Source: an uncultured virus (IMG/VR IMGVR_UViG_3300020048_000022)
Lineage: Duplodnaviria > Heunggongvirae > Uroviricota > Caudoviricetes
IMG/VR virus record: IMGVR_UViG_3300020048_000022
Length of the DNA: 64,000 bases
Direction: 5' to 3' (one strand)
Of the stretch, positions 1,505 to 55,714 are shown piece by piece. The notes beneath the pieces were generated by a model. The model made no database searches and had not been told where the DNA came from. It saw nothing but the letters and a program-made list of their open reading frames with translations. Made by a program: the position numbers and the translations under genes. How positions within the stretch are numbered: the stretch's first letter is position 1; each line of letters begins with the position of its first letter.

Positions 1505-2335
1505 ATGAAGAAGAAAAAGAAAAGACGCATTGACAGCTTTAAAAACTGGTTACTTGCAAGAGATTCTGCTAGTCGAATAAACAATGCTGATGGCAATAGT
1601 GCATTTTTTGAAAGTGTTAATTCGAGAGAAGATGATAGAAGGAGAATGGAAATATTTGATCTGATAACAGGGTCTTTACCCTTTATAAAATTAAGGAGTA
1701 AGATATTTGATTTTGGAATGATGAAAGATGCAGGAGCAGGCAATATGACAATTGTAATAAGAAATCAGGATATACAAAGACAGTTTGGTGAATTTATAGA
1801 ATGTCTAGAACCTAAAGAATGGAACATGGTAAATAGAATATTTATAAAGATTGCGGATGAATTAGTAATAGGTGATGCTGAACAAGATTCTCCTGGTATA
1901 ATTAAAATGAATTGCGAGATACCTTTGTATCATAGCGGTTCTGATGTGGATAAAGCAGCTCGTTCTATTATAAGAAGTTGGATAGCTCAGTCATCATTCG
2001 GGGAAGATTCATATCAGACAAGATTTTTTAGATGGTGGATGAATGAATTTCTTTTTACTGGAAATACCTACACGCATACTCCAGATTCATTTGAAGCGGC
2101 TTTAGTTGGATGGATGAAAATAGCAGATCAGAAAGATATAGAACAAGCATACAGAGAGCTTATTATAAATTCAAAAGATACCAGGATAAAAAGATCATAT
2201 ACAAAGATAGCAACTAAAGAAATAATAGATCATGTTAATTCTAACATGAAAGAATTTAATGCTGATATTAAAGATCTATCTACCGCATATCGTGCTATTT
2301 CTAGGTTTGGCGGTTTTGATACTGACGACGATTGA
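1505..2335 (+). CDS. Hypothetical, putative virion-internal protein
   Basis: 276 aa; N-terminal RIDSFKNW; C-terminal AYRAISRFGGFDTDDD; late promoter upstream. Confidence 0.65.
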   Translation: MKKKKKRRIDSFKNWLLARDSASRINNADGNSAFFESVNSREDDRRRMEIFDLITGSLPFIKLRSKIFDFGMMKDAGAGNMTIVIRNQDIQRQFGEFIECLEPKEWNMVNRIFIKIADELVIGDAEQDSPGIIKMNCEIPLYHSGSDVDKAARSIIRSWIAQSSFGEDSYQTRFFRWWMNEFLFTGNTYTHTPDSFEAALVGWMKIADQKDIEQAYRELIINSKDTRIKRSYTKIATKEIIDHVNSNMKEFNADIKDLSTAYRAISRFGGFDTDDD

Positions 2336-3311
2336 TTTTTCTTTTATATGAAACCTTTCCTTGCCCCATTCTATCTAATGTGAATTGAGAGAGATCCTCA
2401 AATCTTATTATCTGAAAGGGAAATGCCTTATTCTTCTTCTCATATATTATCATAGAATCTAGTCCACACAGAATAAAATATTGCTCTAGCGGTATAGGTG
2501 AAAGATCTCCCATACCTAAAATGTGATTAACATATTCATGAACCTCCTTCTTCTGTATCCTTGTTGTTCTAGTTGGATCAATTATCTCTGCAAGCTTCAC
2601 ACTTAACATTCCTCTACCTAGCCAGTTCCTTAATGAGTTTCTCACTATCGAATAATTCACTATCTCTTTAGGAGTTTCTGGGCTGATCTTAAATATCATG
2701 GTTTCGTCATCCTTAGATTCAAGCTTCCATATCTTACTATTAAGTTCTATGTAACCTCTTGGACAAAGGAAAGATTCACAGAAATGTCTTAGTCCTTTTC
2801 TTAGATCATTGTTATTTGAATCTGTAAGGCTATTCATAAATCCTCCTTGAACTAGAGCTTGTATTATTGTGCCTAGGTCAGTAAAGAAGGATGTGGCTTC
2901 TGTGAGTCTAAAATTTTCAGCATAAGCTTTAATCTCTATCTTCTTTCCCGAGTCCTTGAAAAGCAAATCTGGATATCTTTTACCTCCAGATAATGCTTGG
3001 TCTGATATAAGAAGACATATAATTTCGCCAGCTCCTAAATATGAATGGCACCAATCTGAAACAAATACTATTGTTCTATTGTGTTTTTTGTTGTTTAATA
3101 ACTGATGATTAAGATTTTCTATTGATTCCTCAATGCTTAATTCTCTATTCTCTTTTATAAACTCCCAGAATTTTTTGAATGTGTTCTCATTTTCACTGAT
3201 ATGATTACGAAAAGAAGAAAGGAACTTTTTTGAAATAGCAGGACTAATTGACTTAGTCTTAAAATAGCTATCAAATTCATCTATATAAATGTCTATAATT
3301 CTTCTCCTCAT
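2301..3311 (-). CDS. Putative PD-(D/E)XK-like nuclease-domain protein
   Basis: GAGE...YPDLLF...KIEIK motif order. Confidence 0.4.
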   Translation of the reverse strand: MRRRIIDIYIDEFDSYFKTKSISPAISKKFLSSFRNHISENENTFKKFWEFIKENRELSIEESIENLNHQLLNNKKHNRTIVFVSDWCHSYLGAGEIICLLISDQALSGGKRYPDLLFKDSGKKIEIKAYAENFRLTEATSFFTDLGTIIQALVQGGFMNSLTDSNNNDLRKGLRHFCESFLCPRGYIELNSKIWKLESKDDETMIFKISPETPKEIVNYSIVRNSLRNWLGRGMLSVKLAEIIDPTRTTRIQKKEVHEYVNHILGMGDLSPIPLEQYFILCGLDSMIIYEKKNKAFPFQIIRFEDLSQFTLDRMGQGKVSYKRKINRRQYQNRQT

Positions 3312-3319
3312 TCATACTA

Positions 3320-3347
3320 TTATAGACAAAAGGAACAAAGAAGTTAC
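3320..3347 (-). promoter_or_regulatory. Middle-type promoter GTAACTT-N16-TATAA
   Basis: Variant of the recurrent motif with the same spacer. Confidence 0.45.
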
Positions 3348-4456
3348 ACTTCTCTATTCCAGAAAGGTTTTTGATATTTAGGACGGAGCATTTTCCATAT
3401 AATTGTATCATAATTCCTTCCATCCCATATAGAAAAGCATATTGCTTTTATAGATGGCTCAGTTTTACAGAATTCAAGATGCTCAGCGAATTGTTTTTTA
3501 GTGGGTTCGATCTCACGATCCCCATATTTTCCGTATCTAAAATACTCGTGGATCTTTCCTGCTCTCTCCTCTATTCGATACTTATGATAATTCAGATTAT
3601 CTATAGTTTTTCTTACCCAAGCATCAAATTCATCAGGAACTTTTTCAAGAAGTATATTGATATCCTTACCATCTTTAAGATATTCCCAGATATCAACATT
3701 AGAGAAGTTGGTTAGAAGTCTATGTAATCTCACATATTCTTCAAACTTTATTTTCATTCTAAATGTGTCAGGTTGGAATCTAAGAATAAATCCCTCTTTA
3801 TTCTTTATGTTTTTCTCTTTTAAAGACTTGTATAGATCTGGGCCGAAGGAGAAGTGTTGTTCACACTTAACTATATCTTTTTTCTTGATATAACTAGCAT
3901 TGAATAGAGTCAAAGAAGTTGTCCAGTGTTGTTCCTCTCCATCTATAGAAGTACTTAAAAACACTATTCTTTCCTTATCCTTGTAATCAACAACTATTCT
4001 ATTCTCCGGATAGATTATCTCTACAATGTAAGTGACATGGGTTAAAAAATTATGCAGACGATAATCTTTCTTCAGTATCTCCATCCCCTTTTTAGCCTGC
4101 TCTGAAGTGAATGATCCTTTTGTAGCAAGATGCCATTCATTTTCGTAATGAAAAAGAATACCCAAGGAACCATCAACTTTTTCTTGTACATAAACATAAT
4201 CTCCTTTTAACGGAACTTGATCTGCGACTTCCTCGTAGTTAAAGAATTTATTAAAAGCGGAAGCAACAACATAACCTTTGTCGTCTATTATTGTTCCTCT
4301 CATTGCCAGAGTTATCTCATCCCAATCATTTTTGTATTGAGTGTCTCTTGTGTAGTTATAAATAGAGATAGGTAGAGTGGGGTGAGAATTTTTTTCTAAC
4401 CTTCCCTCGTTAACATACTTATTAAGAGTTCTTATCGAGTAACTTTTTCTTTCCAT
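3344..4456 (-). CDS. T4 Rnl1 (RnlA)-like RNA ligase
   Basis: RG...FNKFFN, motif I EKVDGSLG, ATKGSF, EII, EGFIL, KIKFEEY. Confidence 0.9.
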   Translation of the reverse strand: MERKSYSIRTLNKYVNEGRLEKNSHPTLPISIYNYTRDTQYKNDWDEITLAMRGTIIDDKGYVVASAFNKFFNYEEVADQVPLKGDYVYVQEKVDGSLGILFHYENEWHLATKGSFTSEQAKKGMEILKKDYRLHNFLTHVTYIVEIIYPENRIVVDYKDKERIVFLSTSIDGEEQHWTTSLTLFNASYIKKKDIVKCEQHFSFGPDLYKSLKEKNIKNKEGFILRFQPDTFRMKIKFEEYVRLHRLLTNFSNVDIWEYLKDGKDINILLEKVPDEFDAWVRKTIDNLNYHKYRIEERAGKIHEYFRYGKYGDREIEPTKKQFAEHLEFCKTEPSIKAICFSIWDGRNYDTIIWKMLRPKYQKPFWNREV

Positions 4457-4974
4457 TTCCAGCTTTTTTCTAAATTATTAGGGTCAAATTCTTCAAGCAT
4501 ATTATCTGCTGCTCCAAGGTATATTAGTTTATCCCAATGCGGTCTTGTTTTAAATTCATTCTGCTTGGATTTTTTCATATCTCCAAACTGATGGAATCTC
4601 ATATGATCCTTACAAAGACTTGCGACCGTCTCTACGTCACCACCGTTAGAAGTGATCCATTCTTGAACTATTGTATTACTTCGTATAAAGCTCGCTACGC
4701 GTGTATCGTGACCAGGGCAAGTAACAAATCCAGTTTTAGGATTTATTTGCTGTGTATCATGCTTAAATAGATCGTGCAGGCATCCAGCAAATATCAAATC
4801 CATATCACCAAGAGGGATAAGTCTCTCTGTAACTATTCTGATGTGTTCATTAGTGCTAGACTCTGGGTGGTAGTCAGGTCTTTCTCTGAGTGCCTTTAGA
4901 GCTCCCAATCTAGATGTCACACTAGAAGGCGGATTTGTCTTATCCAAAAACCCTTTAAAATCTTTAAATTCCAT
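4432..4974 (-). CDS. HD-domain phosphohydrolase
   Basis: YHPE...EH...LHDLFK...GH...DHM...AAD; overlaps the ligase gene. Confidence 0.75.
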   Translation of the reverse strand: MEFKDFKGFLDKTNPPSSVTSRLGALKALRERPDYHPESSTNEHIRIVTERLIPLGDMDLIFAGCLHDLFKHDTQQINPKTGFVTCPGHDTRVASFIRSNTIVQEWITSNGGDVETVASLCKDHMRFHQFGDMKKSKQNEFKTRPHWDKLIYLGAADNMLEEFDPNNLEKSWKWKEKVTR

Positions 4975-5077: not shown

Positions 5078-5089
5078 GATATATAAATA
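5078..5089 (+). promoter_or_regulatory. Late-type promoter GATATATA, also containing T4-type TATAAATA
   Basis: gatatataaata upstream of the gene at 5109. Confidence 0.6.
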
Positions 5090-5108: not shown

Positions 5109-5834
5109 ATGAGTATTAAAAATTACGAAGGTTTTAAAAAGATTCAGGAGGTTAGGAAATCAAAGAAATGTCCAGTTCTAAACTTTAAACCTATTAGAGA
5201 ATCTGAAACTTACACAGATATGATTGGTATGGGTTGGATCGAGGTTCTTGCTGATAATCCAGCAGGTATTCTTGCAAAAGCTACAGAAGAAGAAAGAAAC
5301 TTTAAAGATAGATTAGGGAATATTGCTTTTTATCATCCAATTTTTCAAGGATCAAGATTAACATCAAGAGCTTCAAGAAGTGCTGGTGAAGGTTATCCGC
5401 ATTTTAACATTAAACATGATGGAGCTGTTAGAGTTGTAGAAGGACTAAATTTAACAGCAGAATTTCCTAGATTAAATACGGATCTTAGAAGAACATGTAT
5501 GACTATTGGAGATTATCTATATAAGATGAGTTTCCTTATAAAATATGTTATAAAGGAATCAGGATTTCCTGTATCAGATTCAGAATTATATAGTGAGGAA
5601 TCATATAAAGATTTAATGCAAAGAAAAATTGATGCTGATCCATCAGTAGTAAAACACTTCAAAGATATTAATGCTACAGAGGAGACTGGAGGAGTTTCTA
5701 CATCTAATTTCGGATCAGCTAATAAAACTACAAAGATTATATCTTTACCTCCTAGTTTAAAAACAACAGATTATGGTCGAGCAGTATCTGCATTGAAAAG
5801 ATTTGGAGCTTTTGATGATGAGGATGATGATTAA
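5109..5834 (+). CDS. Hypothetical, putative virion-internal protein; distant paralog of 19105..20139
   Basis: N-terminal IKNYEGFKKIQE; C-terminal AVSALKRFGAFDDEDDD. Confidence 0.65.
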   Translation: MSIKNYEGFKKIQEVRKSKKCPVLNFKPIRESETYTDMIGMGWIEVLADNPAGILAKATEEERNFKDRLGNIAFYHPIFQGSRLTSRASRSAGEGYPHFNIKHDGAVRVVEGLNLTAEFPRLNTDLRRTCMTIGDYLYKMSFLIKYVIKESGFPVSDSELYSEESYKDLMQRKIDADPSVVKHFKDINATEETGGVSTSNFGSANKTTKIISLPPSLKTTDYGRAVSALKRFGAFDDEDDD

Positions 5835-10390: not shown

Positions 10391-10398
10391 ATTGAGTG

Positions 10399-13005: not shown

Positions 13006-13452
13006 TTACGACTTTGTTTCTTTTCTAATTAAATCAACGGAAATTAGTTGATAATCATCACCTACAACTCCATTAGCATCCACACTTCCAATTCCTCTAG
13101 GGCTAGGTACTAAGTCATCAATGAATTGTTTTGCCAATTTACCATATTCAGTATTTAAGATTTTATATTTTACAAACACAGTATCATAATTATATGTTCC
13201 TTGTTTTTTCATTTTCTTTTTCTTCTTGCGAGGAACTTTAGGAAACTTAACATAAGTATCAGTAACAATATGAGAAGCCTTTGTTAGAGAAACAACTGTG
13301 CTAGAAGGGTGATCCAATTCACCAAAAGCTGAACCATTTTTTATCTGTTCTTTATATCGTTCTAATTCTCTCATAAAAATATGAGCAGGATATATTCGAC
13401 CATTTTTATTTACTACGTCTGTTTGTAGTAATATTCCTTTATTTGATTTCAT
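13006..13452 (-). CDS. T4 gp21-like prohead protease homolog (short copy)
   Basis: NKNGRIYP...AFGELDHP...SH...ILNTEYG...SPRGIGSV...DYQLISVDLI. Confidence 0.8.
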   Translation of the reverse strand: MKSNKGILLQTDVVNKNGRIYPAHIFMRELERYKEQIKNGSAFGELDHPSSTVVSLTKASHIVTDTYVKFPKVPRKKKKKMKKQGTYNYDTVFVKYKILNTEYGKLAKQFIDDLVPSPRGIGSVDANGVVGDDYQLISVDLIRKETKS

Positions 13453-19104: not shown

Positions 19105-20139
19105 CTAATCCTCGTCATCGGCTTCAGTAAACCTGCTTAGTCCGTATGATGCTCTTTTTAAATCAGAATTAATGTCATTTTCAGGATCAGGCAAAATATG
19201 AGCTAACATTGGATTAGCATTTACTATTTCAATTTTATATTTTCTATAATTGACTGGATCATTAACATATGATTTAGTAACTAAGTTGATAGTTTTTTGT
19301 GGCAAGCCTGATTTTTTAAGAATGTCCTTCAGAATATAAATTACTAAATATGCTAATTTTAAATTCAAATCATCTTCAGTATAAACTGGGCCAGTTATTT
19401 TTATATTAGTAGTAAGAACTGGTGTTTTGTTCCCATGATCTATTCTAATATATCCATTAGGTTGTATAATAAGACCATAATTAAAATCTTTTAATGAAAA
19501 TCTTAAAATACCCTTTTTCTTTCTTGCTTCACTAGTATCAATATAAGCACCTAGACTATCTAGTGTCTTAATTAAAGGGTTATTATTTAGATCTATATCA
19601 GTAAAAGGATTTAAAAGAGGGGTTTCATCTTTTATGATCTCTCTAAGATCTGTAAATATTGGATAAAACAATCTACATAAAGTATCTTTTATATCTGAAT
19701 GGTTATAGAAAGTGTATTGTTTTCCTCTATATACAAATAAATCATATTTTGACATTCCCTTACCTCTGTCTGAAAGAATCTTACCGTAGATATTTGCATG
19801 ATTATACAATATTCCGTTATTAGAATGTATATCAATTCCTAAGCTATTATAAAAATTATCAACGACTGAATCATCCTTTAATGCTTCAATATTAGGAACA
19901 ACTTGATCATAAGTATAGTTAATAAAAGGAACTAGTATTCTGTTACCATTAATAACAAAATATATCTCGGATCCTTGGAGCTCAATAGAAAAGTTCTTAA
20001 GGCCTACTACTTTAGATAAGATATTTTTCCCAACTCCATCAACAAAAAAATTCTTCAATGGTTTAGGTAAAGATTCAAAAGAAGAATGCCCACCATCCGA
20101 GCTCTCATTTAAAAATTGCGAAAAATTCATTATCCTCAT
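19105..20139 (-). CDS. Hypothetical, putative virion-internal protein
   Basis: MRIMNFSQFLNES; C-terminal ASYGLSRFTEADDED. Confidence 0.65.
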   Translation of the reverse strand: MRIMNFSQFLNESSDGGHSSFESLPKPLKNFFVDGVGKNILSKVVGLKNFSIELQGSEIYFVINGNRILVPFINYTYDQVVPNIEALKDDSVVDNFYNSLGIDIHSNNGILYNHANIYGKILSDRGKGMSKYDLFVYRGKQYTFYNHSDIKDTLCRLFYPIFTDLREIIKDETPLLNPFTDIDLNNNPLIKTLDSLGAYIDTSEARKKKGILRFSLKDFNYGLIIQPNGYIRIDHGNKTPVLTTNIKITGPVYTEDDLNLKLAYLVIYILKDILKKSGLPQKTINLVTKSYVNDPVNYRKYKIEIVNANPMLAHILPDPENDINSDLKRASYGLSRFTEADDED

Positions 20140-20643: not shown

Positions 20644-21516
20644 TTAGAATCCTAGATCTCCAAGATCTGCCGCAGTATCAATATTAGGCAATAAGGATTT
20701 TATTCTATTGTATATATTCTCATTACCTCTTCTTATCTCATCCGCAACTTTAAATGAATCAGCAGATTTATTAAAATACTCAATCATTGTATCAACAACA
20801 ACATTCGGTAATTCAGCATCTCTTAGAGATTCAATTTCATTATCTCCAATTTCTTTTAATAGATTAAGGAATTTCTTACCCAATGAATTCCAATCCCTTT
20901 CCATTGATGAATATCTATTACACGTTTTTTCTAATTCCTTTTTTATTATGGCATCAATTCCTAAATTAGCTCTATAAACAGGAGAAAATAGATCAATATA
21001 TTTTAATTCTTTTATTTTTACCATATTACCTGGCCAAAATATATCCTCCAATATCGGGGTAACGCTATTTACTATAGCATTCCTAAATATATTACTTATA
21101 GGAAGATCGTTTGCTGTATTAACTGGAGGACATGTAGTTAGACCTGTTGATATATCTTTTATTAATTTATTAACACTTGGATAAATATTAGGATCTTTAA
21201 TTTCGTTAGCATAATCGAAATCGCCTTCATTATAACCATTTGGATATTTTATTAAAGATGCTATATCATTTTTATGTATATCCATTATAGTTGAGCTGGC
21301 CTTGTCAGATTTTTCCTCCTTATAAATTAAAATATTCTCATACGATTTATAGATTAACCAGTTTTTAAAATTTTTATTAAAATTAGATCTAGCCATTCCA
21401 GATTTAGCAGAAGCATACGAATTAATATAATCGCTATTAGTATAAACCCTGCTTATATTAAACATATCCCCCTCGTATGATTCAAATATCTTAAAACTCT
21501 TAATCCTTTTCATCAA
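20644..21516 (-). CDS. Hypothetical, putative virion-internal protein
   Basis: MKRIKSFKIFES; C-terminal DTAADLGDLGF. Confidence 0.6.
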   Translation of the reverse strand: MMKRIKSFKIFESYEGDMFNISRVYTNSDYINSYASAKSGMARSNFNKNFKNWLIYKSYENILIYKEEKSDKASSTIMDIHKNDIASLIKYPNGYNEGDFDYANEIKDPNIYPSVNKLIKDISTGLTTCPPVNTANDLPISNIFRNAIVNSVTPILEDIFWPGNMVKIKELKYIDLFSPVYRANLGIDAIIKKELEKTCNRYSSMERDWNSLGKKFLNLLKEIGDNEIESLRDAELPNVVVDTMIEYFNKSADSFKVADEIRRGNENIYNRIKSLLPNIDTAADLGDLGF

Positions 21517-21527
21517 TTATTTTTTTT

Positions 21528-22502: not shown

Positions 22503-22505
22503 AAT

Positions 22506-23648
22506 TTAAACTTCTATATCCCCATTAGGGTAGATCTTTTTAATTATAGCGACCTTGCCATTATCTAGTATAACCTTATTTCCGACTTTCATGTTAGAGC
22601 TTTGATCTCCTTCTTCTCCACCGCCTTCTCCTTGTTGTCCAGGTTCTCCAGGTTGGTCCCCAGATTCTCCAGATTCTCCTGGCTGGTCTCCTGGTTTATC
22701 TCCTGGTTTATCTCCTGGTTTATCTCCTGGTTTATCTCCTGGTTGGTCCCCAGATTCTCCAGATTCTCCTGGTTGGTCTCCTGGTTGGTCTCCTGGTTTA
22801 TCTCCAGGTTTATCTCCAGGTTGGTCTCCAGGTTGTTCGCCAGGCTGATCCCCTGGTTGGTCTCCTGGTTGTTCTCCAGGTTGTTCTCCAGGTTCATCAC
22901 CAGGTTCATCACCAGGTTGTTCTCCAGGTTCATCGCCAGGTTCATCACCAGGTTGTTCTCCTGGTTCTCCAGGTTCATCGCCAGATTCATCTTGATCCAC
23001 TGGGAAGTCTCCGTCCTGTATATTTAGATCGCTGTCCATTTCTGGAGTTTCGTCTTCGTCTATTATTTTTCCTATATCTGCTTGTTGCATAATCTTAGGA
23101 TCAGCAATCAATTTAGCCAATTCTCCAGATTTTTCTAAAATATCATATATGTCCTCAGCTCGCATTCCCTCAAATCTTGCTTCGTATAGACCAAATCTTT
23201 CTCCGCCTTCTTGTGGCCATTCAACTCCAGTCTCATCTTTTATTATTGGATTTATAGCATAATCACAAGCTATATTCCATCCATCAGGATTTCTTGTCCC
23301 TCTTCTTCCCATATGATCTCCAATACAATGAAGTATTTCATGTATTAGTACAAATCTTACTGCTTCGTCTTTTTGTTTAAGAACAAAATCTGGGTGAAAT
23401 ATTATATCCCTACCATTAGTACACATGGTTGGTGGATCAATCTCAGAAGATCCATAAATATTGAGGTGAGCTAGTAGCTCCCCGTAAAATCCTTTATTGA
23501 TAGCTATCCAAAGAATAGCTTTTCTTATTTTTTTAACAACTTCCGCATTTTGATCCTCACTTTCGTTGATAGCAGAAAAAGATTGAAAATCTAATATCCT
23601 TGATACAGAGCCTCTTCCCTCAAATATTTGGAATTTTTTTATTCTCAT
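22506..23648 (-). CDS. HExxH metallopeptidase-like protein (DUF2201_N-like) with PG(D/E) repeat
   Basis: TMCTNG...HEILH...H...WNIACDYAIN...AEDIYD. Confidence 0.85.
   Translation of the reverse strand: MRIKKFQIFEGRGSVSRILDFQSFSAINESEDQNAEVVKKIRKAILWIAINKGFYGELLAHLNIYGSSEIDPPTMCTNGRDIIFHPDFVLKQKDEAVRFVLIHEILHCIGDHMGRRGTRNPDGWNIACDYAINPIIKDETGVEWPQEGGERFGLYEARFEGMRAEDIYDILEKSGELAKLIADPKIMQQADIGKIIDEDETPEMDSDLNIQDGDFPVDQDESGDEPGEPGEQPGDEPGDEPGEQPGDEPGDEPGEQPGEQPGDQPGDQPGEQPGDQPGDKPGDKPGDQPGDQPGESGESGDQPGDKPGDKPGDKPGDKPGDQPGESGESGDQPGEPGQQGEGGGEEGDQSSNMKVGNKVILDNGKVAIIKKIYPNGDIEV
22635..22985 (-). repeat. Coding tandem repeat, roughly 12-nt unit encoding PG(D/E)(E/Q/K)
   Basis: Repeated cctggtttatct / ccaggttcatca / ccaggttgttct variants. 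Confidence 0.9.
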
Positions 23649-23653
23649 AATTA

Positions 23654-32864: not shown

Positions 32865-33617
32865 TTAGAAGTCTTTAAGAGATTGAATGATTTTAAATCT
32901 CTCTCTTGCATTAAGATCATCAAGAGTTTCTTTACCAGTTTCTCTTCTAAGAAGTTTTTTGAATTTAGCAGGATCTGTAGTAGCTCCAGACTTTTGAGCA
33001 AATTCTCTAACATCTCTTCTTGAAGGAACTAAATCTAATACTAAAGCTCTTAAAGGGATATTATATTGTAATGCTAGGTTAGCTATTCTGTTACCTGAAA
33101 AAAGATAATAGCTATATTCTGCAGATGTTCTCGTCTCTCCGAAATTTATAAATCTAATGACAATAGGAGCGGGTAATGATAAAGATCCTTTTCTTTTTAA
33201 ATCATCTGATATTTTTATAAGGACATCTCCATATGCTCTACCGTATGCTCCAGCAATGATATTATCAAATTCATAAGCCATTAAATTCTGGATACTATTA
33301 ACATCAAATCCATCTTCAGAAACAATAGGAATTGTTTCCATGTGTCCTTTTTTAAATGGCTCTATAATATATTTAAAAAATTTAGTGGATCTAGCAGCAA
33401 CTTTTCCTACGTCTTTATTACCAATAGTAATATTATGCTGATAGAATTCTAATTTAGCTCTCTCATCATAATGAGTTATCTCCTCAGCAAGATCTGGCAT
33501 TTCCCAGTTTATCTTTAGCTTACCCACATAGCTCTTAACAGGAGCTTGAGTTCCCTCGCTTCCGTCAGGACTATTTGAATCCTGCTCATTAACAAAATCA
33601 CTTAATCTTAAAATCAT
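32865..33617 (-). CDS. Putative virion-internal protein with possible ParB/Srx-like domain
   Basis: LRLSDFVNEQ; LPAPIVI...YLFSGNR. Confidence 0.5.
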   Translation of the reverse strand: MILRLSDFVNEQDSNSPDGSEGTQAPVKSYVGKLKINWEMPDLAEEITHYDERAKLEFYQHNITIGNKDVGKVAARSTKFFKYIIEPFKKGHMETIPIVSEDGFDVNSIQNLMAYEFDNIIAGAYGRAYGDVLIKISDDLKRKGSLSLPAPIVIRFINFGETRTSAEYSYYLFSGNRIANLALQYNIPLRALVLDLVPSRRDVREFAQKSGATTDPAKFKKLLRRETGKETLDDLNARERFKIIQSLKDF

Positions 33618-35858: not shown

Positions 35859-36344
35859 TTATTTAATGAATGCTTCGTCAACCATTTCTGGTGTGATTTC
35901 TACTAATACATTCTTTTTCTTTAATGAATAAGGAATTGCTATAATAACATTTCTAGCTTCATCTACGTCCTTAACTAAAAATTCAGAATCAACAAAGATA
36001 TTTGTTGATGGCTCATCACCAGTTCTATCTCTATTACCTAGATAAGTATCATTCTCCTCGTCATATTCATCTTCAGTATCTCTACCTGGATTATATCCCA
36101 TTTCAGAATAAATATCTTTCAAATATTGAGGAGCGTTCTTACCTTGAGAAGGAATCTCAGCAACTAAAGTAATCTCTGAAAGTGTTCCGTTCATTACTTG
36201 AGTTAAAAGACTTTTTAATTCAGAAATCAATTGATTTCTCTTAATAGTTCTCTCCGGTTCGAAACTTGTTCCTCTGTATAAAGGCACTCCTGTATTATAA
36301 ACTGACTGTTCATTAATGAAGTCTAAAAATTTTAAAATTCTCAT
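35859..36344 (-). CDS. Hypothetical, putative virion-internal protein
   Basis: MRILKFLDFINEQ; GATATATA at 36362-36369. Confidence 0.6.
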   Translation of the reverse strand: MRILKFLDFINEQSVYNTGVPLYRGTSFEPERTIKRNQLISELKSLLTQVMNGTLSEITLVAEIPSQGKNAPQYLKDIYSEMGYNPGRDTEDEYDEENDTYLGNRDRTGDEPSTNIFVDSEFLVKDVDEARNVIIAIPYSLKKKNVLVEITPEMVDEAFIK

Positions 36345-37667: not shown

Positions 37668-37695
37668 TTATACAATAAAATTGGAATTAAATTTC
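37668..37695 (-). promoter_or_regulatory. Middle-type promoter GAAATTT-N16-TATAA
   Basis: Variant with the same spacer. Confidence 0.45.
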
Positions 37696-38334
37696 ATTAA
37701 GCTTGTTAAATATCAGCTTAGTAACCTCATCTAATTTCTTCTCTCCTGATATTTCTAAGAAGTTTCCACCATTTCTCATAGATTCTATCATAGGAAGAGT
37801 CTGTTCATTATATTCTTCCATTCTAATTTGAAATGCTTTCTCGTTTTTATCATCAGATCTACCTGAGGATTTTCCCCTTTCTTTTATTCTTTCTTTCAAT
37901 ATTTTCTCTGGAACATTTAGAAAGAATACAAATTCTAATGAGATATTATTAATCCTACATATCTCGTCGAATATAGTCTTCTGTTGTAAATTTCTAGGAT
38001 ATCCATCAAAAATATATCCCTTAGGATCACTATGCTTAGTTAATTTTTTAAGATAATCTAAAAGTTCTTTGCCAACAAGATCATCGGGAAGAAGATTTCC
38101 AGTTTTCATTAGTTTCTTAATCTCCTTATCATCGGAATCCCTTAATATATCTCCTGTTGAAATATGCTTCCATCTCATACCTTTAGCTATAATTCTAGCT
38201 TGTGTACCTTTACCGCATCCAGGGGGTCCTGCTAAAATTATACATGGGACTTTTTCTGAATCTTCATTTCCGTCTATGTCGCCATATTGCTTTACGAAAT
38301 CTTTAAAATTTCTAATTTTCTTAGGGTTATTCAT
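37687..38334 (-). CDS. adk: Adenylate kinase (short LID)
   Basis: GPPGCGKGTQA, HISTGDILR, GNLLPD, DGYPR, GRSDD. Confidence 0.92.
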   Translation of the reverse strand: MNNPKKIRNFKDFVKQYGDIDGNEDSEKVPCIILAGPPGCGKGTQARIIAKGMRWKHISTGDILRDSDDKEIKKLMKTGNLLPDDLVGKELLDYLKKLTKHSDPKGYIFDGYPRNLQQKTIFDEICRINNISLEFVFFLNVPEKILKERIKERGKSSGRSDDKNEKAFQIRMEEYNEQTLPMIESMRNGGNFLEISGEKKLDEVTKLIFNKLNEI

Positions 38335-43648: not shown

Positions 43649-43702
43649 ACTCTTATCTTATAATAATAATTGAAAGAGGTTTCATTTTGGAATATATAAT
43701 AA

Positions 43703-44008
43703 GTGAAAAAAATTCTAACATTCAAATTATTCGAGCAGGTTTATCTAAATGATATTAAACCTTTCGACTCAGAACAAAGTTATCCTAAAGGATTAAGGTT
43801 TGCAAATAGAGACGAGGCATTAAAATCTATAAGAAGATTACAAGAAATGCTTGATAAGAAAGAGATAGAATTAAAAGATGCTATAATAGCATCTTATATA
43901 ATGGCACAAAGAGCAAAATTACACAAGAGTGCTAAGCCTGGAATAAAAGAAGGTGGATCAATCTGGGAAAATTATTTAGCTCAGCTAAAACAGAAAGAAA
44001 AATTATGA
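43703..44008 (+). CDS. Hypothetical, putative virion-internal protein
   Basis: KKILTFKLFEQ; AATATATA at 43691-43698; GTG start. Confidence 0.6.
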   Translation: MKKILTFKLFEQVYLNDIKPFDSEQSYPKGLRFANRDEALKSIRRLQEMLDKKEIELKDAIIASYIMAQRAKLHKSAKPGIKEGGSIWENYLAQLKQKEKL

Positions 44009-44584
44009 TTTTTTAAAGAAAGCAATAAATTCTTTAATCATTTCTTTAAAATCGTAATTATCCTCATTCTTATCTAATGAAACACTCTCAATAGATTTTT
44101 TTGCCCATTCTTTCATATAATTCAAATAGGTCTTGAATGATCCTGGAATTCTTTCCGTATCGCCTTTAAAGATGTCCTTTATTGTCTTAGAATATCCCAT
44201 CATGAATTTATCTCTGATTGATTTCTCAGACTTCTCTAAATCACAATAATCAAAAAACGTAGATGTTATATCCCAAACATTATCTGTAGTTATATCATCG
44301 AAATTTTTAGAGCTCCTAACTTTACCGTCATTAGCTATTATTTTACAAACACAAATACTTTTCTTATCTGGAGATTTTTCTTTATCAAAATAAAAATCTA
44401 ATCTAGACTCTTCCTCTTCTTTAGGCTTAATATAAACGATAGTCATTATTCCTGCCTGAGTAAAAAGCATATATCCATTTCCTTTTATCTTATCAAAAGA
44501 AGCTTCATTATCTACAATATACCAATTAGTTGTTACTGCACTTACTCCCTCAAAAAGTCTTCTAAATGATAGTATATGATTCAT
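44003..44584 (-). CDS. Hypothetical, putative virion-internal protein
   Basis: MNHILSFRRLFEG. Confidence 0.6.
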   Translation of the reverse strand: MNHILSFRRLFEGVSAVTTNWYIVDNEASFDKIKGNGYMLFTQAGIMTIVYIKPKEEEESRLDFYFDKEKSPDKKSICVCKIIANDGKVRSSKNFDDITTDNVWDITSTFFDYCDLEKSEKSIRDKFMMGYSKTIKDIFKGDTERIPGSFKTYLNYMKEWAKKSIESVSLDKNEDNYDFKEMIKEFIAFFKKS

Positions 44585-46090: not shown

Positions 46091-46417
46091 CTAATTACGT
46101 GGATTTGTTTCATTAATTCCAGAAGATTTTAAAATTCTTTTTCCTAAAGGGGTCAATTCAAAGTAATTAGCTTCTTCCTCTTGGATCTTATACTTTATGT
46201 ATTTCTTTTGATTCCTAACCCAAGACATACTAGGCTTTCTACCGGAAGCATCTTCTGGTATACTATCTAAGAATTCTAATAACTCTTTCTTAGTTACTTT
46301 TTCTTTCTCTTTTATGAAAGAGAGAACTTTAGTAGTTGTTACTGAGGGCTTAGCCCAAGCTATAGGTATTCTAGATTCTAAGATAAATTCATCATATGAA
46401 AGAATTTTATTAATCAT
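46091..46417 (-). CDS. Putative virion-internal winged-helix-like protein
   Basis: KILSYDEFILES; YFELTPLGKRIL. Confidence 0.5.
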   Translation of the reverse strand: MINKILSYDEFILESRIPIAWAKPSVTTTKVLSFIKEKEKVTKKELLEFLDSIPEDASGRKPSMSWVRNQKKYIKYKIQEEEANYFELTPLGKRILKSSGINETNPRN

Positions 46418-46943
46418 GATCCCTTCTAGAATAAATTAATGTTTTCTTTGCTGCTCCCTCTTGTGAGCTCCATTTACCGTAGCTCCATTCATCCATAAGG
46501 GATTTAACTTTATCTGAATATTCTTCAAAATCCATATCAAGATTTAAAGGAATCTCATCATAAATAATAGAAACCTTAGGATTAGATTGTAAGTAATCTT
46601 TTATACATTCACCAACTATTTTATAGAATCTCATATATTCGGATTTGGTTAACGAGAATTGTTCATCTTCTCTTGATTTAAAATCCGAATCTTTTACTAG
46701 GAAATCATCCATTACTGATTCTTTAATAGTCTCTACTGCAAGAACAGCATAACTATTTTCAGCAGATTCTATAGTGATATTTCTAGATAACTTACCAAGG
46801 GAAACTACAAATCCAAGATCTTCTTCTTCTCCTTCTATTTTAAAAAAATATTGGGAAAGCTTTCCGTCTTTCTTTTTAACAAAGAAGTCTCTTCCGTATC
46901 CATCTTCATTTAAGAAATTTTCAAATAATTTAATGTGTCTCAT
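46410..46943 (-). CDS. Hypothetical, putative virion-internal protein
   Basis: MRHIKLFENFLNED; GATATATA at 46948-46955. Confidence 0.6.
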   Translation of the reverse strand: MRHIKLFENFLNEDGYGRDFFVKKKDGKLSQYFFKIEGEEEDLGFVVSLGKLSRNITIESAENSYAVLAVETIKESVMDDFLVKDSDFKSREDEQFSLTKSEYMRFYKIVGECIKDYLQSNPKVSIIYDEIPLNLDMDFEEYSDKVKSLMDEWSYGKWSSQEGAAKKTLIYSRRDHD

Positions 46944-46959
46944 ATTCTATATATCTTAA

Positions 46960-47236: not shown

Positions 47237-48826
47237 TTAGTAATTGTCTCCCATTCCTTGTTTACCCATTGAATTACCTATACATAGCATACCTTCTCTA
47301 TAGGCATCACCTTTTTTGATGTATGGATGTAATTTAATAAGATTACCTAATGATGAGCTTACAAAATCATCAGTTCCAAGTCTGTCTAACCATACAGTAA
47401 ATGAACATATTTCCTCGTTTGTTAACACCTTTTCTTTACTTTTTTGTAGTACAGCGCTAATTAAAGCATGAGCATAATCTACATCGCCACCTCTATCAGA
47501 AGGGATCGGTGCTTTTTCTGGATTAGTGAAAGGTAAAAGTAAATCCTTAACTGGTATATCTTTACCTACTTTGTACCAATCTAAGAATGCTACAGCAGCA
47601 TCTCTACCTACATTTTTTTGGAATTCTCTTACTAGTACATCGTGAGGTACTTCAGTAATACCATTCTCTTCGTACTCATCCATAACTCTTCTTACTGCTC
47701 TAGAAGCATCTTCCCATGCTCTAGGTGTTGGGTATTTTAATTTCTTATTTGCAGGGTCATTAAAATGTAACCACTGAGATTGGAAATCTAAGAAATCTAA
47801 AAGTTCAGGTAAAAATATTTTATCCATTCCTGGTGTGCTCTCTACGTATTTTCTTAAAGATTTCACATTAGTAATAAGATTAACGATCTCAAATCTGTCT
47901 TGTAATGCAGATCCCATTTCGACGATACCACCTTTAGGGTCGTCTTCTTTTCTATTACCTGCTGCTACAATATACCATCTTTCTGGCATTTGATAGTTAA
48001 TACCTAATCTTCTCTGTTGAGCTAACATTAAGAAGATCTTTTGTACTTCAACCGGCATACGGTTAAATTCATCAACAAATATTATTCCACCTCTTTTATT
48101 TTTACCATTATCATAAGGTAATATGTCAGCACTAATATTAGATCTTGTAACTCCTTTTCCTAATGGGTTAGCTTCACTTGGAGCTTCTATATCTACAACT
48201 TTAGGTACACCAGCAAAGTCTACAGGTTCAGCACTTAAGCCGTCACAATTTAATAATTGAAGTCCTTGACCATAAAGTTCCTGTCCAAGTTCTTCACAAA
48301 CTTCAGCTACTATTTGTGTTTTACCAATACCAGGAGCTCCATAGATAAAATAAGGCTTAACTTTTCTTAATTCCTTTTGTAATCTTTCCTTTTCTGAAGG
48401 ATCTGTCGTAGCATCCATCTGGTCTGCAATTTTTATAACAGCTTTAAGACTTCTTTTTATATCTTTCTTAATAACATCTGGAAGTGAATTAGGTACATCC
48501 TCATCTCTTGGCCACTCTAAACCAACTGCAGCTTCGTTTGTAATACCCTCATTTTGTAAATTTATATTATTCATATTATAATAAGGAGTACCTTTATAAA
48601 AACTTTCAACCTGAGATACGATAGATCCATTTTCTCCACTAAATAAACTATAAGCAGGTAAACCTTTTTTCGGACCTGACGAAATCATTCTAATAATTCC
48701 GCTTTTTACAGCAGTAATAAGTTGATTTGCCCATTGAGAAATTTTATTACCTATATTGGATAATATACCTTCGTCAATATCATAAGATTCATTAACGAAT
48801 TCTTTAAAGTTGTAGATTTTTTTCAT
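47237..48826 (-). CDS. MoxR-like AAA+ ATPase, copy 2
   Basis: GAPGIGKT, IIFVDEFNR, AAGNR, ALQDRF, PTPRAW; GATATATA at 48855-48862. Confidence 0.9.
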   Translation of the reverse strand: MKKIYNFKEFVNESYDIDEGILSNIGNKISQWANQLITAVKSGIIRMISSGPKKGLPAYSLFSGENGSIVSQVESFYKGTPYYNMNNINLQNEGITNEAAVGLEWPRDEDVPNSLPDVIKKDIKRSLKAVIKIADQMDATTDPSEKERLQKELRKVKPYFIYGAPGIGKTQIVAEVCEELGQELYGQGLQLLNCDGLSAEPVDFAGVPKVVDIEAPSEANPLGKGVTRSNISADILPYDNGKNKRGGIIFVDEFNRMPVEVQKIFLMLAQQRRLGINYQMPERWYIVAAGNRKEDDPKGGIVEMGSALQDRFEIVNLITNVKSLRKYVESTPGMDKIFLPELLDFLDFQSQWLHFNDPANKKLKYPTPRAWEDASRAVRRVMDEYEENGITEVPHDVLVREFQKNVGRDAAVAFLDWYKVGKDIPVKDLLLPFTNPEKAPIPSDRGGDVDYAHALISAVLQKSKEKVLTNEEICSFTVWLDRLGTDDFVSSSLGNLIKLHPYIKKGDAYREGMLCIGNSMGKQGMGDNY

Positions 48827-48867
48827 CTTGTAAATTCTATTTTATTTATATTTCTATATATCTTATT

Positions 48868-49860: not shown

Positions 49861-49883
49861 ACAATTTGATTCATTATATTTTT
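49811..49883. repeat. About 73-bp direct repeat spanning the vWA gene starts (also 51635-51707; partial copy 51808-51862)
   Basis: Identical cctccttcttttaattcctgtattc...cattatattttt. Confidence 0.9.
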
Positions 49884-49887
49884 ACTT

Positions 49888-50691
49888 TTATGGATTTTTT
49901 TTAAGATATTGCGATACTCGATCCTTAGGAATTGGGTCATAATCTATTTCACCGCTATCTTCATCCACGCTATTTACAACACCATAGTTGTCATTAGCTT
50001 TGTCGTATATAACATCACCAACCTGTGGATTTTTAGGTGGTCCGGGTGCTGGTTTTGGAGGTGGTGTTCCTGGCTCTCTACCTTCATCCCCTTTATACCC
50101 TTTAGATATTAGTATATTATAAATTTTTTCAGATGGAAGACCGATAAACTCTTTATCATAATCAACATGACCGCATCCAGGATAAAGAGCTCCTTTCGGC
50201 ATAGTACCTACGCATTTTTTTCTGTCGCTAGTTGGTCCGCCATTTTCTACTGGTGTTAGCATCTGATTTATAGCATAATCAGTTGCAACATTCCATATAA
50301 CTAATTTTGTTAAATCTTTAGGGGCTCTTAAAAAATGCAAAAGCGCATTGTGCATAATTTCGTGTGCTATTACCCACATAATTTCTTCCTCTGTATGGTC
50401 TAAAACATATCCAGGATCATAATGTATACTGAATCCGTCAGTAGCCATAGTTTTATATCTAAGATTTTTATTCTCCCTAATGTATAATTTAGCTAAAAGT
50501 CCACTAAAAAATGGATGTTGTCCTGTTAACCAAAAAATTGCTGCTTTCATTCTTTTGTAAGCATCAGGATTATATGGTTTTTTTTCTAAGGGGTCTAAAA
50601 AATTTGCCTCGTTGATTTTATTATATAAAGAATTATCAAATTTTTGATATTCATATAGTCCAAAATCTTTAAAGCTTAATATTTTCCTCAT
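49888..50691 (-). CDS. HExxH metallopeptidase-like protein (DUF2201_N-like), copy 2
   Basis: TMATDG...HEIMH...H...WNVATDYAIN; GATATATA at 50706-50713. Confidence 0.85.
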   Translation of the reverse strand: MRKILSFKDFGLYEYQKFDNSLYNKINEANFLDPLEKKPYNPDAYKRMKAAIFWLTGQHPFFSGLLAKLYIRENKNLRYKTMATDGFSIHYDPGYVLDHTEEEIMWVIAHEIMHNALLHFLRAPKDLTKLVIWNVATDYAINQMLTPVENGGPTSDRKKCVGTMPKGALYPGCGHVDYDKEFIGLPSEKIYNILISKGYKGDEGREPGTPPPKPAPGPPKNPQVGDVIYDKANDNYGVVNSVDEDSGEIDYDPIPKDRVSQYLKKNP

Positions 50692-50718
50692 CTTCTTTTT
50701 TTATTTATATATCTGGTT

Positions 50719-51684: not shown

Positions 51685-51707
51685 ACAATTTGATTCATTA
51701 TATTTTT

Positions 51708-51807
51708 NNNNNNNNNNNNNNNNNNNNNNNNNNNNNNNNNNNNNNNNNNNNNNNNNNNNNNNNNNNNNNNNNNNNNNNNNNNNNNNNNNNNNNNNNNNNN
51801 NNNNNNN
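51708..51807. other. Assembly gap (100 N)
   Basis: Run of n flanked by duplicated sequence. Confidence 1.
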
Positions 51808-51865
51808 TGTATTCTTATATCAGATATGTTTGTTTTCATACAATTTGATTCATTATATTTTTCAT

Positions 51866-53902: not shown

Positions 53903-53905
53903 TTT

Positions 53906-54352: not shown

Positions 54353-54354
54353 TT

Positions 54355-55110
54355 TTATTCTTCCTCGTCTTCATCATAAACTACGTCATCAGAACCCTCA
54401 TCCTCATCACCATAAGTGTATTCCATGTTAGGATCTTCTTGTTCTTCGTCTTCGTCTTCGTCGTCCTCTATGCTATCTACATGCTCTTCGATATGCTCAT
54501 CCCAAACTGGTTGTAATTTACAAGATAAGAATTTAGAGAATACTTCTCCATTTTTTCTATCCTGTATAGTTACCATTCTTGGTCCATTGATCTCATCCAA
54601 TTCGATGCTTTCAGCAAACATTTTTGATTCTTCAAGATTCATGAAAGGACCGAATGTATAGATTCCAAAATCTGGCGTTGTTTTAATCTTCAAAGGAGCA
54701 GACATTGGATCTTTACTATACTTTTCCATTGCATCTTCTTTTTCGAACACGTAATCGTCGCACATAGTAACAAAATGATAGTTAGGATCTCCACCATCAC
54801 CAATCATTTGCTTAGCCATATCAGAAGATTTAGACTCATTCATTTTCTTTTTAAATGCGAAGTCTTTCTTATCAGATTTATTCTTAATACCTTTCTTTTC
54901 TTTGTACTCGTCCCAAGCCTTAGAAAGACCCTGCATGTATTTTTCCTGAGCTTTTTCATCACCTTTGAATTTTTTATCAAAAGGTCCAGAAACACCATGT
55001 TCTTTATTGTACTTCTTAGAGAAATCCAAATACTGGTTTCTTTCGGTTACAAGTTCTGTTTCTTTTAAGTCTTGTCTTTTCTTTTCTATTATTAAAGAGA
55101 ATTTTTTCAT
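54355..55110 (-). CDS. Hypothetical, putative head-associated protein with acidic tail
   Basis: MKKFSLIIEK; internal MNES; acidic C-terminus. Confidence 0.55.
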   Translation of the reverse strand: MKKFSLIIEKKRQDLKETELVTERNQYLDFSKKYNKEHGVSGPFDKKFKGDEKAQEKYMQGLSKAWDEYKEKKGIKNKSDKKDFAFKKKMNESKSSDMAKQMIGDGGDPNYHFVTMCDDYVFEKEDAMEKYSKDPMSAPLKIKTTPDFGIYTFGPFMNLEESKMFAESIELDEINGPRMVTIQDRKNGEVFSKFLSCKLQPVWDEHIEEHVDSIEDDEDEDEEQEDPNMEYTYGDEDEGSDDVVYDEDEEE

Positions 55111-55114
55111 TTTT

Positions 55115-55714
55115 TTATGCGTTATTTGGTTGGAATATAGGTTGATTAGGATTTTTTTGTTTCGTGTAGTATAGGTATGCTCTATTCATTCCTATGTCAT
55201 CTAGTACTGGAACTTGTCCTTTATTAACTTGAGCTTTTTGATAAAGCTCTGTAATATTATCTTCTAATTGCTGCTCTGTCTTAATATTAGGTAGTTCGTT
55301 TTTAGCAAAATCCTCGTTTGTGTGTCTCATGAACGCAACATCAACTTCCTCGTCCTTAACAGGAGCTTTCTTAGCAATCTCAAATTTAGTAGGCCCGAAT
55401 ACTCTTTTAAGTACACTAGGAACCACAGAAGGTAAACCGAATAACATTTCATATCCAGTATTCAAATTGCCTCCTCTAGCAGCTCTATTTTGTCTAGTTA
55501 TATCCTGACCAGCCTGAGCAATATTATTTAATTTATCCTCCATTTTTTGAAAGAAATTTTGGGATTTCTGTAATATAGTAGAATCAGCAGGAAGATTATA
55601 ATGATTTTTAGCCCTATCACTATAGGTCTTAGCATTATTTCCTAGATGCCTGCTGAAGAATAATTCTTCTGATTCATTAATACAAAAATCTCTATATTCT
55701 TTAATGTTTCTCAT
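55115..55714 (-). CDS. Hypothetical, putative virion-internal protein
   Basis: MRNIKEYRDFCINES; GATATATA at 55735-55742. Confidence 0.6.
   Translation of the reverse strand: MRNIKEYRDFCINESEELFFSRHLGNNAKTYSDRAKNHYNLPADSTILQKSQNFFQKMEDKLNNIAQAGQDITRQNRAARGGNLNTGYEMLFGLPSVVPSVLKRVFGPTKFEIAKKAPVKDEEVDVAFMRHTNEDFAKNELPNIKTEQQLEDNITELYQKAQVNKGQVPVLDDIGMNRAYLYYTKQKNPNQPIFQPNNA

Follow-up and report, generated by a model that had tools for sequence, protein, structure and literature searches.

An N-terminal tag on otherwise unrelated proteins of an uncultured phage resembles the capsid targeting sequence of phage T4

Introduction

Why do proteins that have little else in common begin with the same 10-16 residues? 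The question is raised by a 64-kb stretch of DNA (64,000 nucleotides; hereafter, the window) of an uncultured virus of the Caudoviricetes, IMG/VR record IMGVR_UViG_3300020048_000022. In this window, 15 of 95 genes begin with M-(K/R)-x-I-x-x-(F/Y)-x-x-F-(I/L/V)-N-E-(S/Q) or a near variant, an element that we refer to as the tag. An earlier note, made from the DNA letters, had proposed that this element is similar to a T4 capsid-targeting tag and that the phage packages the tagged proteins into its head.

It is established that T4 has a capsid targeting sequence (CTS) and that variable internal proteins of T-even phages carry it (PMC3012670, PMC9026906, PMC5694885). As described in PMC9026906, residues 4 and 7 carry most of the targeting function in the 10-residue CTS of the internal protein IPIII, and residues 8 and 10 serve processing; an Asp at position 10 prevents processing and leaves targeting intact, and (I/L)-x-E is the cleavage rule of the prohead protease gp21. 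A full-text literature search gave, among the matches listed, no paper linking a CTS to huge, jumbo or metagenomic phages, most subscription journals lying outside its coverage.

In this study, we examined the tag, its conservation in related phages, the DNA upstream of the tagged genes, and the head genes that might act on it. We estimate at roughly 60% the probability that the tag is a T4-type prohead-core (capsid) targeting propeptide that is removed after its Glu by the prohead protease; the 15 tagged proteins would then probably be head cargo. This reading is drawn from the likeness of the tag to the CTS at the four positions that function in T4, from a homolog of the S77 protease family in the window, from a protease-scaffold fusion and a Gp23-type capsid gene in relatives, and from a sequence box shared by tagged and head genes.

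Results and discussion

The tag and its statistics

The gene set was made by a greedy call of open reading frames (ORFs) of at least 50 aa, which gave 96 ORFs; one of them, 51675-51848, which spans the run of N at 51708-51807, was excluded, so that the set comprises 95 genes with 20,411 aa in total. The GC content of the window is 32%, and almost all genes lie on the minus strand.

A composite pattern, [ILVM]..[FY]..[FL].{0,3}E[SQDG] starting within the first 12 residues, is found at 13 of the 95 gene N-termini versus 1 of 19,271 other positions. When residues 2-25 were shuffled 1000 times, a mean of 0.34 genes and a maximum of 4 were matched, and the tag is thus commoner than in shuffled N-termini, a comparison on which the earlier note had staked its claim beforehand. 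In leave-one-out profiles, the omitted tag ranked top among non-training proteins for 14 of the 15 genes, with E values from 3.5e-5 to 0.65; the exception was 44003-44584, which ranked 6th (E 4.5). One might suspect that chance, or an A+T-rich composition favouring K, I, N and F at N-termini, had produced the resemblance, given the low GC content and the fact that the raw count of the upstream sequence GATATATA does not rise above shuffles (see below). The shuffles, the near absence of internal matches, the leave-one-out recovery and the conservation of tags in orthologs refute this explanation, to which we assign a practically nil probability.

All 15 examples that had been listed proved to be true N-termini of long open frames, with start codons at the positions given. 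The estimate of about 20 tagged proteins was slightly generous: 15 are clear, and three more N-termini (1505-2335, 4432-4974 and 5109-5834) are degenerate. It was also right that the tagged proteins are otherwise unrelated, as only 2 pairs of the tag-less bodies match each other at E <= 0.01, two MoxR ATPases and two DUF2201_N proteins, and that the replication genes lack the tag, including both polymerase pieces, the topoisomerase II subunits, ribonucleotide reductase (RNR), helicase, primase, and the gp32-like and RuvC-like proteins.

The tag ends, at its Glu position, at residue 10-16 in all 15 proteins, and in the protein encoded by 22506-23648 a second copy of the tag ends at residue 30. 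The spacing aromatic-x-x-Phe occurs as F/Y..F in 13 of 15 tags, as L..F in 32865-33617, and as F...L-F in 44003-44584. The fuller pattern [FYL]..F[ILV].[EQ] is exact in 9 tags; in 5 the (I/L/V)-x-E is displaced by 1-2 residues, and one has a short form. Counted separately, (I/L/V)-x-Glu is present in 14 of 15 tags, 8 of them with exactly the T4 spacing and 6 displaced by 1-2 residues or in the short form (I/L-F-E).

Comparison with the T4 targeting sequence

In the T4 genome (NC_000866), both ipII and ipIII begin with MKTYQEFIAE, as the earlier note had quoted for IPIII, and the region of gp23 before its known cleavage point reads AFGSFLTE-A, the same pattern. The functional residues of IPIII (Y, F, I and E at relative positions 0, +3, +4 and +6) correspond to the best-kept positions of the tag (F/Y, F, I/L/V and E). 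Searched with the window tag profile, T4 gave its best matches in gp61.1 (E 0.022) and at an internal site of uvsW (E 0.041). T4 gene 61.1 (NC_000866, 18966-19130) encodes a hypothetical protein of 54 aa whose first residues, MKTFKEFIKE, closely copy those of IPII and IPIII.

The two systems thus share an N-terminal tag of about 10-16 residues on unrelated proteins, the pattern aromatic-x-x-Phe-(I/L/V)-x-Glu, and an S77 protease homolog in the genome. They also differ. The window tag adds a conserved (K/R)-I three residues before the first aromatic residue and an Asn at P2, and its aromatic pair begins at residue 5-10 rather than at residue 4. It is found on 15 of 95 window genes, whereas a pattern scan finds three such N-termini in T4 (ipII, ipIII and gp61.1). 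Finally, the putative cargo of the window consists of large, mostly acidic proteins, among them AAA+ ATPases, peptidases and a kinase.

Conservation in related phages

The N-terminal piece of the window's DNA polymerase is nearest to those of uncultured huge phages, with LR756500.1 (462 kb; LR756500) as the best match at 41% identity; other matches include records of 630-735 kb and, at 31% identity, Lak phages, and all 2671 matching phage records are below 60% identity. No near-identical record turned up, either with an exact 48-mer in viral and metagenomic contigs or by megablast against the phage collection. Closer relatives were found with the 500-aa tagged protein, which has seven relatives in IMG/VR at 63-71% identity. 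Two IMG/VR relatives were compared whole, G003 (148 kb) and G004 (207 kb), and in both the tagged genes are colinear with those of the window.

All 15 tagged proteins have orthologs in G003 or G004, and none of these orthologs is without a tag. Over 30 ortholog pairs, identity was 64% in the tag (283/444), 52% in the next 20 residues (314/600) and 57% in the body (4177/7392), and the tag was kept in orthologs whose bodies are 28-82% identical. Some orthologs that have no Glu still keep the aromatic pair. With the window-derived profile at E <= 0.05, tagged ORFs numbered 15 of 167 in G003, 23 of 333 in G004 (plus one match that is not N-terminal) and 5 of 670 in LR756500. The last phage has a Y-rich variant, MKYIKxYxxF(L/I)NE, that is poorly seen by this profile, and pattern searches list more. 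At E <= 5 the profile is unreliable, since internal matches are then as many as N-terminal ones (34 vs 41 in LR756500).

In G004, the region at about 119-145 kb (L063) is a dense run of small genes starting with MKHIKLFE.., MRHLK.F.. or MKYIKLFESF.., that is, a hypervariable cluster of tagged genes. It resembles the variable internal-protein loci of T-even phages. One G004 protein starts with MIQHYEEFIAE, almost the T4 sequence.

The tag as an add-on to adenylate kinase

One tagged protein is an adenylate kinase (37687..38334, minus strand, 215 aa; Pfam ADK 5e-34), whose tag, MNNPKKIRNFKDFVKQ, is located at 38287-38334. The ADK domain begins at residue 34, all 17 matching records in the phage collection align from residue 32 on, and the kinase of the cultured Tenacibaculum phage pT24, which has no extension, begins 3 residues before the match. 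In an AlphaFold2 model (pLDDT 84), a helix at residues 10-17 is followed by a low-confidence, disordered linker at 18-28 and by the kinase core from residue 29. Because the domain and phage matches begin so late, the pT24 enzyme does without the extension and the model places a disordered linker behind the helix, we regard the kinase tag as an add-on outside the enzyme fold, predicted to be a short helix on a flexible tether.

Among the best 120 metagenomic kinase homologs (49-100% identity), complete ones have the extension with its aromatic pair, and five are fragments that have no N-terminus. The second Phe of the kinase tag (F13) is invariant in an alignment of 50 sequences. Many kinase tags have no Glu: the window protein has FVKQ, relatives have FVKE or FVKD, and others have FKEFGS.

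A box upstream of tagged genes and head genes

Many tagged genes are preceded by GATATATA, as had been claimed. The claim stands as to placement; the raw count is not above shuffles, with 12 copies in the window versus 7.0 expected and 6 of 100 shuffles reaching 12. Eleven of the 12 copies are on the coding strand directly upstream of a start codon: 8 just upstream of clearly tagged genes, 2 upstream of degenerate ones and 1 before a 57-aa ORF, the last copy lying inside the UvdE gene. When the box was defined as [AG]ATATATA within 45 nt upstream and counts were compared by Fisher test, it preceded 9 of 15 tagged versus 5 of 80 untagged genes in the window (p 6e-6), 9 of 15 versus 22 of 152 in G003 (p 2e-4), and 14 of 23 versus 36 of 310 in G004 (p 1.6e-7). 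Many of the box-preceded genes counted as untagged in G003 and G004 bear weaker tags.

In LR756500, the box precedes 4 of 8 homologs of genes of the T4 morphogenesis region versus 2 of 35 other T4 homologs. It is found before the protease-scaffold gene in both G003 and LR756500, and in the latter also before the capsid gene, the gp18 homolog and a tail-tube-like gene. Because it is placed before head and tail genes in these relatives, the box is a candidate late promoter. The late promoter of T4 has the consensus TATAAATA, located about 10 nt upstream of late transcript starts; taken in this form, that consensus is not matched by [AG]ATATATA.

In the window itself, an untagged 775-aa gene (61245..63572, minus strand) has an AATATATA box at 63576-63583 and adjoins a tail-tube-like gene (60685-61236). 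The 775-aa gene has no match in Pfam, PHROG or PDB and no T4 homolog, and comparison ruled out that it is the counterpart of the LR756500 gp18 homolog.

Since box and tag co-occur, since in five genes no more than 4-6 nt separate the box from the start codon, and since the first codons are A/T-rich, conservation might be sought at the DNA or mRNA level: a promoter-plus-leader cassette could have been copied by recombination, or the start region could be tuned for translation of late mRNAs with short leaders. However, of 175 pairs of identical residues within tags only 92 share their codon, and the mean nucleotide identity of the tag block is 57%. As synonymous codons vary inside the tags, selection acts on the tag peptide. 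Moreover, the distance between box and ATG ranges from 4 to about 29 nt, six tagged genes lack their own box (most of these are close behind a box-preceded gene), and the tag persists in orthologs with widely diverged bodies. Conservation of the nucleic acid rather than of the peptide is therefore very unlikely.

Protease, scaffold and head genes

The window encodes a 148-aa paralog of the gp21 prohead protease (13006..13452, minus strand; Pfam S77 1.3e-12, phrog_207 3e-22, PDB 5jbl 1.1e-5). Its alignment with T4 gp21 starts at about residue 43, and the columns of His85 and Ser140, the catalytic residues of gp21, are retained. A lysine-rich insert, ..KVPRKKKKKMKKQG.., is present in this protein. 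It looks like a free-standing version of the short form of gp21, gp21s, which in PMC9026906 is described as arising from an internal start; the window protein begins at about the same place as this short form. LR756500 has a similar short S77 paralog and, in addition, a 632-aa protein with an N-terminal S77 domain.

G003 encodes a 696-aa S77 protease-scaffold fusion (405-2495; PF03420 3.2e-10, phrog_207 5.3e-38), followed directly by a capsid gene of the Gp23 family (PF07068, 5e-38). The tail of the fusion contains, at residues ~283-489, 14-15 tandem units of 14 residues, ..ISYSEYLAENLDKN.., each with aromatic-x-x-aromatic-L-x-E (Y-x-x-Y-L-A-E). Since several copies of the repeat are identical, they may have expanded recently or been strongly homogenised. 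The pattern [FY]..[FY][ILV].E occurs 15 times in the 466-aa tail versus 21 times in the other 46,578 residues, and [ILV]NE[SGAQN] occurs 7 times versus 27 times; the LR756500 tail follows the same trend more weakly (2 in 402 aa vs 50 in 140,422).

Candidate cleavage sites are also found at N-termini in the head module. The (I/L)-x-E rule is fitted by those of the protease fusions (..VLILE-K in G003 and ..LLIIE-R in LR756500), of the capsid proteins (MQLLNE-N in G003 and MIKLINE-A in LR756500) and of the four ORFs that follow the capsid gene in G003 (MLFE-N, ..KLKEFVFE-Q, ..NPLFE-S and ..FLGLLE-S). An alignment of the capsid proteins with T4 gp23 contains a homologous N-terminal segment, ..W-x-P-(I/L)-(I/L)-E-G/S..; it has no conserved site under T4 Glu65, only candidate (I/L)-x-E sites.

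The presence of a separate short S77 paralog with its catalytic columns amid non-structural genes might suggest that the tag has no connection with the capsid. It could be a propeptide that inhibits or regulates the protein until it is cut off, or a degradation signal at the N-terminus, and a protease such as this paralog would activate or destroy the proteins at a given time; the tag does end in a protease-type site, and the two tagged peptidases might need a prosegment. Yet a tethered tag of 10-16 residues is unlikely to inhibit 13 unrelated folds. The best-conserved positions are the two aromatic ones, F13 being invariant in the 50 kinase homologs, and these correspond to the targeting residues of T4 as given in PMC9026906. 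Some orthologs, furthermore, drop the Glu and keep the aromatic pair. We consider a role of this kind improbable by a wide measure.

The tagged proteins

Recognisable tagged proteins are two MoxR-type AAA+ ATPases, two DUF2201_N putative metallopeptidases and the adenylate kinase. The first ATPase (23654..25213, minus strand, 519 aa; Pfam AAA_5, phrog_1297) has the tag MKNNRIKNFNDFVNE at 25169-25213 and a GATATATA box at 25234-25241. Its paralog (47237..48826, minus strand, 529 aa; Pfam AAA_5; 34% identity, E 4.7e-61) has the tag MKKIYNFKEFVNE at 48788-48826 and the same box at 48855-48862. The peptidase encoded at 22506..23648 (minus strand, 380 aa; Pfam PF13203 6.2e-20) carries tandem tags, MRIKKFQIFE at 23619-23648 and SRILDFQSFSAINE at 23559-23600, both matched by the tag profile. 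Its paralog (49888..50691, minus strand, 267 aa; Pfam PF13203 5.5e-20) has the tag MRKILSFKDFGLYE at 50650-50691 and a GATATATA box at 50706-50713.

The 500-aa protein (28647..30149, minus strand) begins with the tag MDKKLFTFKQFINE at 30108-30149, behind a GATATATA box at 30154-30161, and its C-terminal part is a phrog_3000 domain of unknown function. In this C-terminal third (28647-29300, minus strand), the stretch ..GMQIHRSSTKGVGICVGPWSAGCQVF.. looks, on visual inspection, like the His...Cys motif of L,D-transpeptidase-type enzymes, and the nearest named Atlas cluster is Tlde1 (0.79), a weak lead only. Searches of Pfam (E <= 1) and of PDB sequences gave nothing relevant for the domain, and an AlphaFold2 model from a 6-sequence alignment was unusable (pLDDT 33.7).

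Several tagged proteins on the minus strand have no assigned family or function. These are a 344-aa protein (19105..20139; no family match) with the tag MRIMNFSQFLNE at 20104-20139 and tagged orthologs in both G003 and G004; a 290-aa protein (20644..21516), whose likely start is the ATG at 21513 and whose short-form tag, MKRIKSFKIFE, is at 21481-21513; a 250-aa protein (32865..33617) with the tag MILRLSDFVNE at 33585-33617 and a GATATATA box at 33623-33630; a 161-aa protein (35859..36344) with the tag MRILKFLDFINE at 36309-36344 and the box at 36362-36369; and a 199-aa protein (55115..55714) with the tag MRNIKEYRDFCINE at 55673-55714 and the box at 55735-55742.

The others are short. A 101-aa protein, encoded on the plus strand with a GTG start (43703..44008), has the short-form tag (M)KKILTFKLFE at 43703-43732 and an AATATATA box at 43691-43698. 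The minus-strand gene 44003..44584 (193 aa) is the weakest of the 15; its tag, MNHILSFRRLFE at 44549-44584, has an E value of 2.8e-5 when it is itself in the model. Also on the minus strand, 46091..46417 (108 aa) has MINKILSYDEFILE at 46376-46417, and 46410..46943 (177 aa) has MRHIKLFENFLNE at 46905-46943 and a GATATATA box at 46948-46955. Two of the degenerate tags are on the plus strand behind a GATATATA box: MKKKKKRRIDSFKNWLLARD, with no Glu, in 1505..2335 (box at 1492-1499; the N-terminus is kept in G003 and G004), and MSIKNYEGFKKIQEV in 5109..5834 (box at 5078-5085; tag profile E 3.2).

MoxR modules

The tagged ATPases and peptidases belong to a set of AAA_5, DUF2201_N and DUF2201 vWA-like genes that occurs twice in the window, at 47237-51684 and 20644-25213 (minus strand). 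In the first module the vWA gene is duplicated (48868-49860 and 50719-51684); the first 16 residues of the copies are identical, and blocks of their DNA are 71-96% identical. The 100-N assembly gap at 51708-51807 is located just upstream of the second copy, and the stretch may be mis-assembled.

A MoxR-vWA-metallopeptidase set of T4-like jumbo phages has been proposed to serve virion assembly or processing, as a chaperone (Iyer et al. 2021, PMC7824862). The window has the same domain set as the group 2.2 jumbo phage system in that source, where the metallopeptidase is N-terminal; it differs in that peptidase and vWA protein are separate genes and in that ATPase and peptidase are tagged. A head-targeting tag on two of the three module parts fits the proposal of Iyer et al. 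Because of that proposal (PMC7824862), some tagged proteins may do their work in the prohead and not in the next host.

Points against head targeting, and a possible docking helix

Several observations weigh against the targeting reading. The head module was read from G003, and the window itself has only the 148-aa S77 paralog. The window tag profile matches T4 ipII and ipIII at an E value of only about 2 (3.2 bits), so that the likeness to T4 is a shared pattern, with no significant profile alignment. The G003 scaffold-repeat profile matches no tag in the window, G004, LR756500 or T4, nor does the window tag profile match the scaffold repeats. T4 internal proteins are basic, according to PMC3012670 and PMC9026906; the mature cargo of the window is mostly acidic, with a median isoelectric point of 5.4, and does not differ from untagged proteins (p = 0.52). 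The tagged adenylate kinase has a Gln (V-K-Q) at the position of the cleavage Glu, and its gene is part of a nucleotide-metabolism operon, 8 nt downstream of the gene for the RNR large subunit. Nor is the box confined to morphogenesis genes, as one copy precedes the RNR small-subunit gene. Finally, no tag-profile match was found in the cultured distant relatives PAU, MA9V-2 and pT24, in a first-look search whose empty answer shows little.

Some of these points would be accommodated if the tag were a docking helix for another partner or place, such as a chaperone hub, another late assembly, or the inner membrane, which an amphipathic helix flanked by basic residues might reach. In the kinase model the tag forms a short, tethered amphipathic helix, two tagged proteins are chaperone-type ATPases, and the window also encodes a full DnaJ. 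A kinase placed among nucleotide-metabolism genes, acidic mature proteins unlike those of T4, and the non-significant T4 profile similarity are in line with this possibility as well. Nevertheless, it leaves unexplained the conserved Glu and the (I/L/V) two residues before it, and equally the (I/L/V)-x-E in the relative's protease-scaffold tail and at the N-termini of the head module; the tags, besides, have no hydrophobic stretch or export-type lipobox. We consider a docking role elsewhere unlikely, and the targeting propeptide remains our preferred reading.

A possible mechanism

If the tag is a targeting propeptide, the following steps can be envisaged. Late in infection, operons driven by [AG]ATATATA would make the tagged proteins together with the head proteins. 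The amphipathic tag helix would dock on the scaffolding core, which would be the coiled-coil-like tail of the protease-scaffold fusion with its ~15 aromatic-x-x-aromatic-L-x-E repeats, and the capsid shell would close round core and cargo. The S77 prohead protease would then cut after the Glu of (I/L/V)-x-E, before S, Q or G, and free the cargo, and the same protease would chop the scaffold into peptides of ~14 residues that exit the head. Untagged partners, e.g., the three vWA proteins of the MoxR modules, could ride along as complexes.

The pattern common to tag and repeat also suggests the idea that the tag imitates one scaffold unit. In its full form, which we regard as tentative and as having distinctly less than an even chance of being right, the tag would be a single-unit mimic of the ~14-residue repeat; proteins that acquired it would co-assemble with the core and be freed by the cut that dissolves the scaffold. 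About 1 gene in 7-10 would then encode head cargo, the virion would carry a substantial set of enzymes, AAA+ machines, peptidases and a nucleotide kinase among them, for the next cell or for its own maturation, and across a widespread clade of uncultured large T4-type phages the head interior could be read from sequence.

As to what is packaged, the earlier note had spoken of enzymes and effectors delivered into the host. Packaging would fit the CTS likeness at the four functional positions and the context of S77 and head genes; the word effectors has no supporting annotation. Delivery of the cargo into the next host is possible, and less supported than head targeting. The MoxR-vWA-peptidase sets are, less certainly, better candidates for assembly or maturation factors.

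Relation to other packaging systems

CTS-like leaders of T2, T6 and other T-even phages, as described in PMC9026906, likewise combine one conserved leader with a changing set of unrelated proteins. There they are found on small basic proteins of close T4 relatives, whereas the window tags occur amid replication and nucleotide-metabolism genes of a distant lineage. In phiKZ-like giant phages (SPN3US, phiKZ and 201phi2-1; PMC5694885), where head and ejection proteins have N-terminal propeptides, many internal head proteins are cut after Glu by a gp21-related protease, as demonstrated by mass spectrometry, and a diverged protease paralog is present too. The propeptides presented in that source are, in contrast, mostly 80-130 residues long and share no single short tag, with sites such as A-L-E-111 and S-L-E-13 (PMC5694885).

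A functional parallel is offered by the cargo-loading peptides of encapsulins. There, a short terminal peptide suffices to load unrelated enzymes into an HK97-fold shell; these peptides, which stay uncleaved, are mostly found at the C-terminus and make direct contact with the shell protein. They have no sequence likeness to the window tag.

Other features of the window

The replication and nucleotide genes of the window encode a split family-B DNA polymerase, topoisomerase II subunits, both RNR subunits, and gp32-like, primase-like, helicase-like and RuvC-like proteins; further genes encode the full DnaJ, UvdE, Thg1, an RNA ligase and the short Peptidase_S77 homolog. The polymerase is divided between two minus-strand genes ~16 kb apart, at 42242-43648 and 25254-26429, that correspond to the exonuclease/N-terminal part and the C-terminal palm part, respectively. 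In LR756500.1, too, T4 gp43 matches three separate ORFs. A full-length tmRNA gene is located at 10396-10889 (minus strand) amid small phage genes (Rfam RF00023, 77.1 bits, with a gathering score of 47), and its tag peptide, according to ARAGORN, is EEAEMLLAA.

Conclusions

Should the tag function as its T4 counterpart does, the first 15 residues of each gene would be enough to predict which proteins an uncultured phage lineage packages. This would be useful since huge phages have no culture system and no virion proteomics. It would also mean that the small internal-protein system of T4 has grown, in this lineage, to take in large enzymes and at least a tenth of the gene set. That a targeting peptide may engage the scaffold by imitating one scaffold repeat is a testable idea, and protein encapsulation might profit from a short natural tag by which folded enzymes are brought into a very large capsid.

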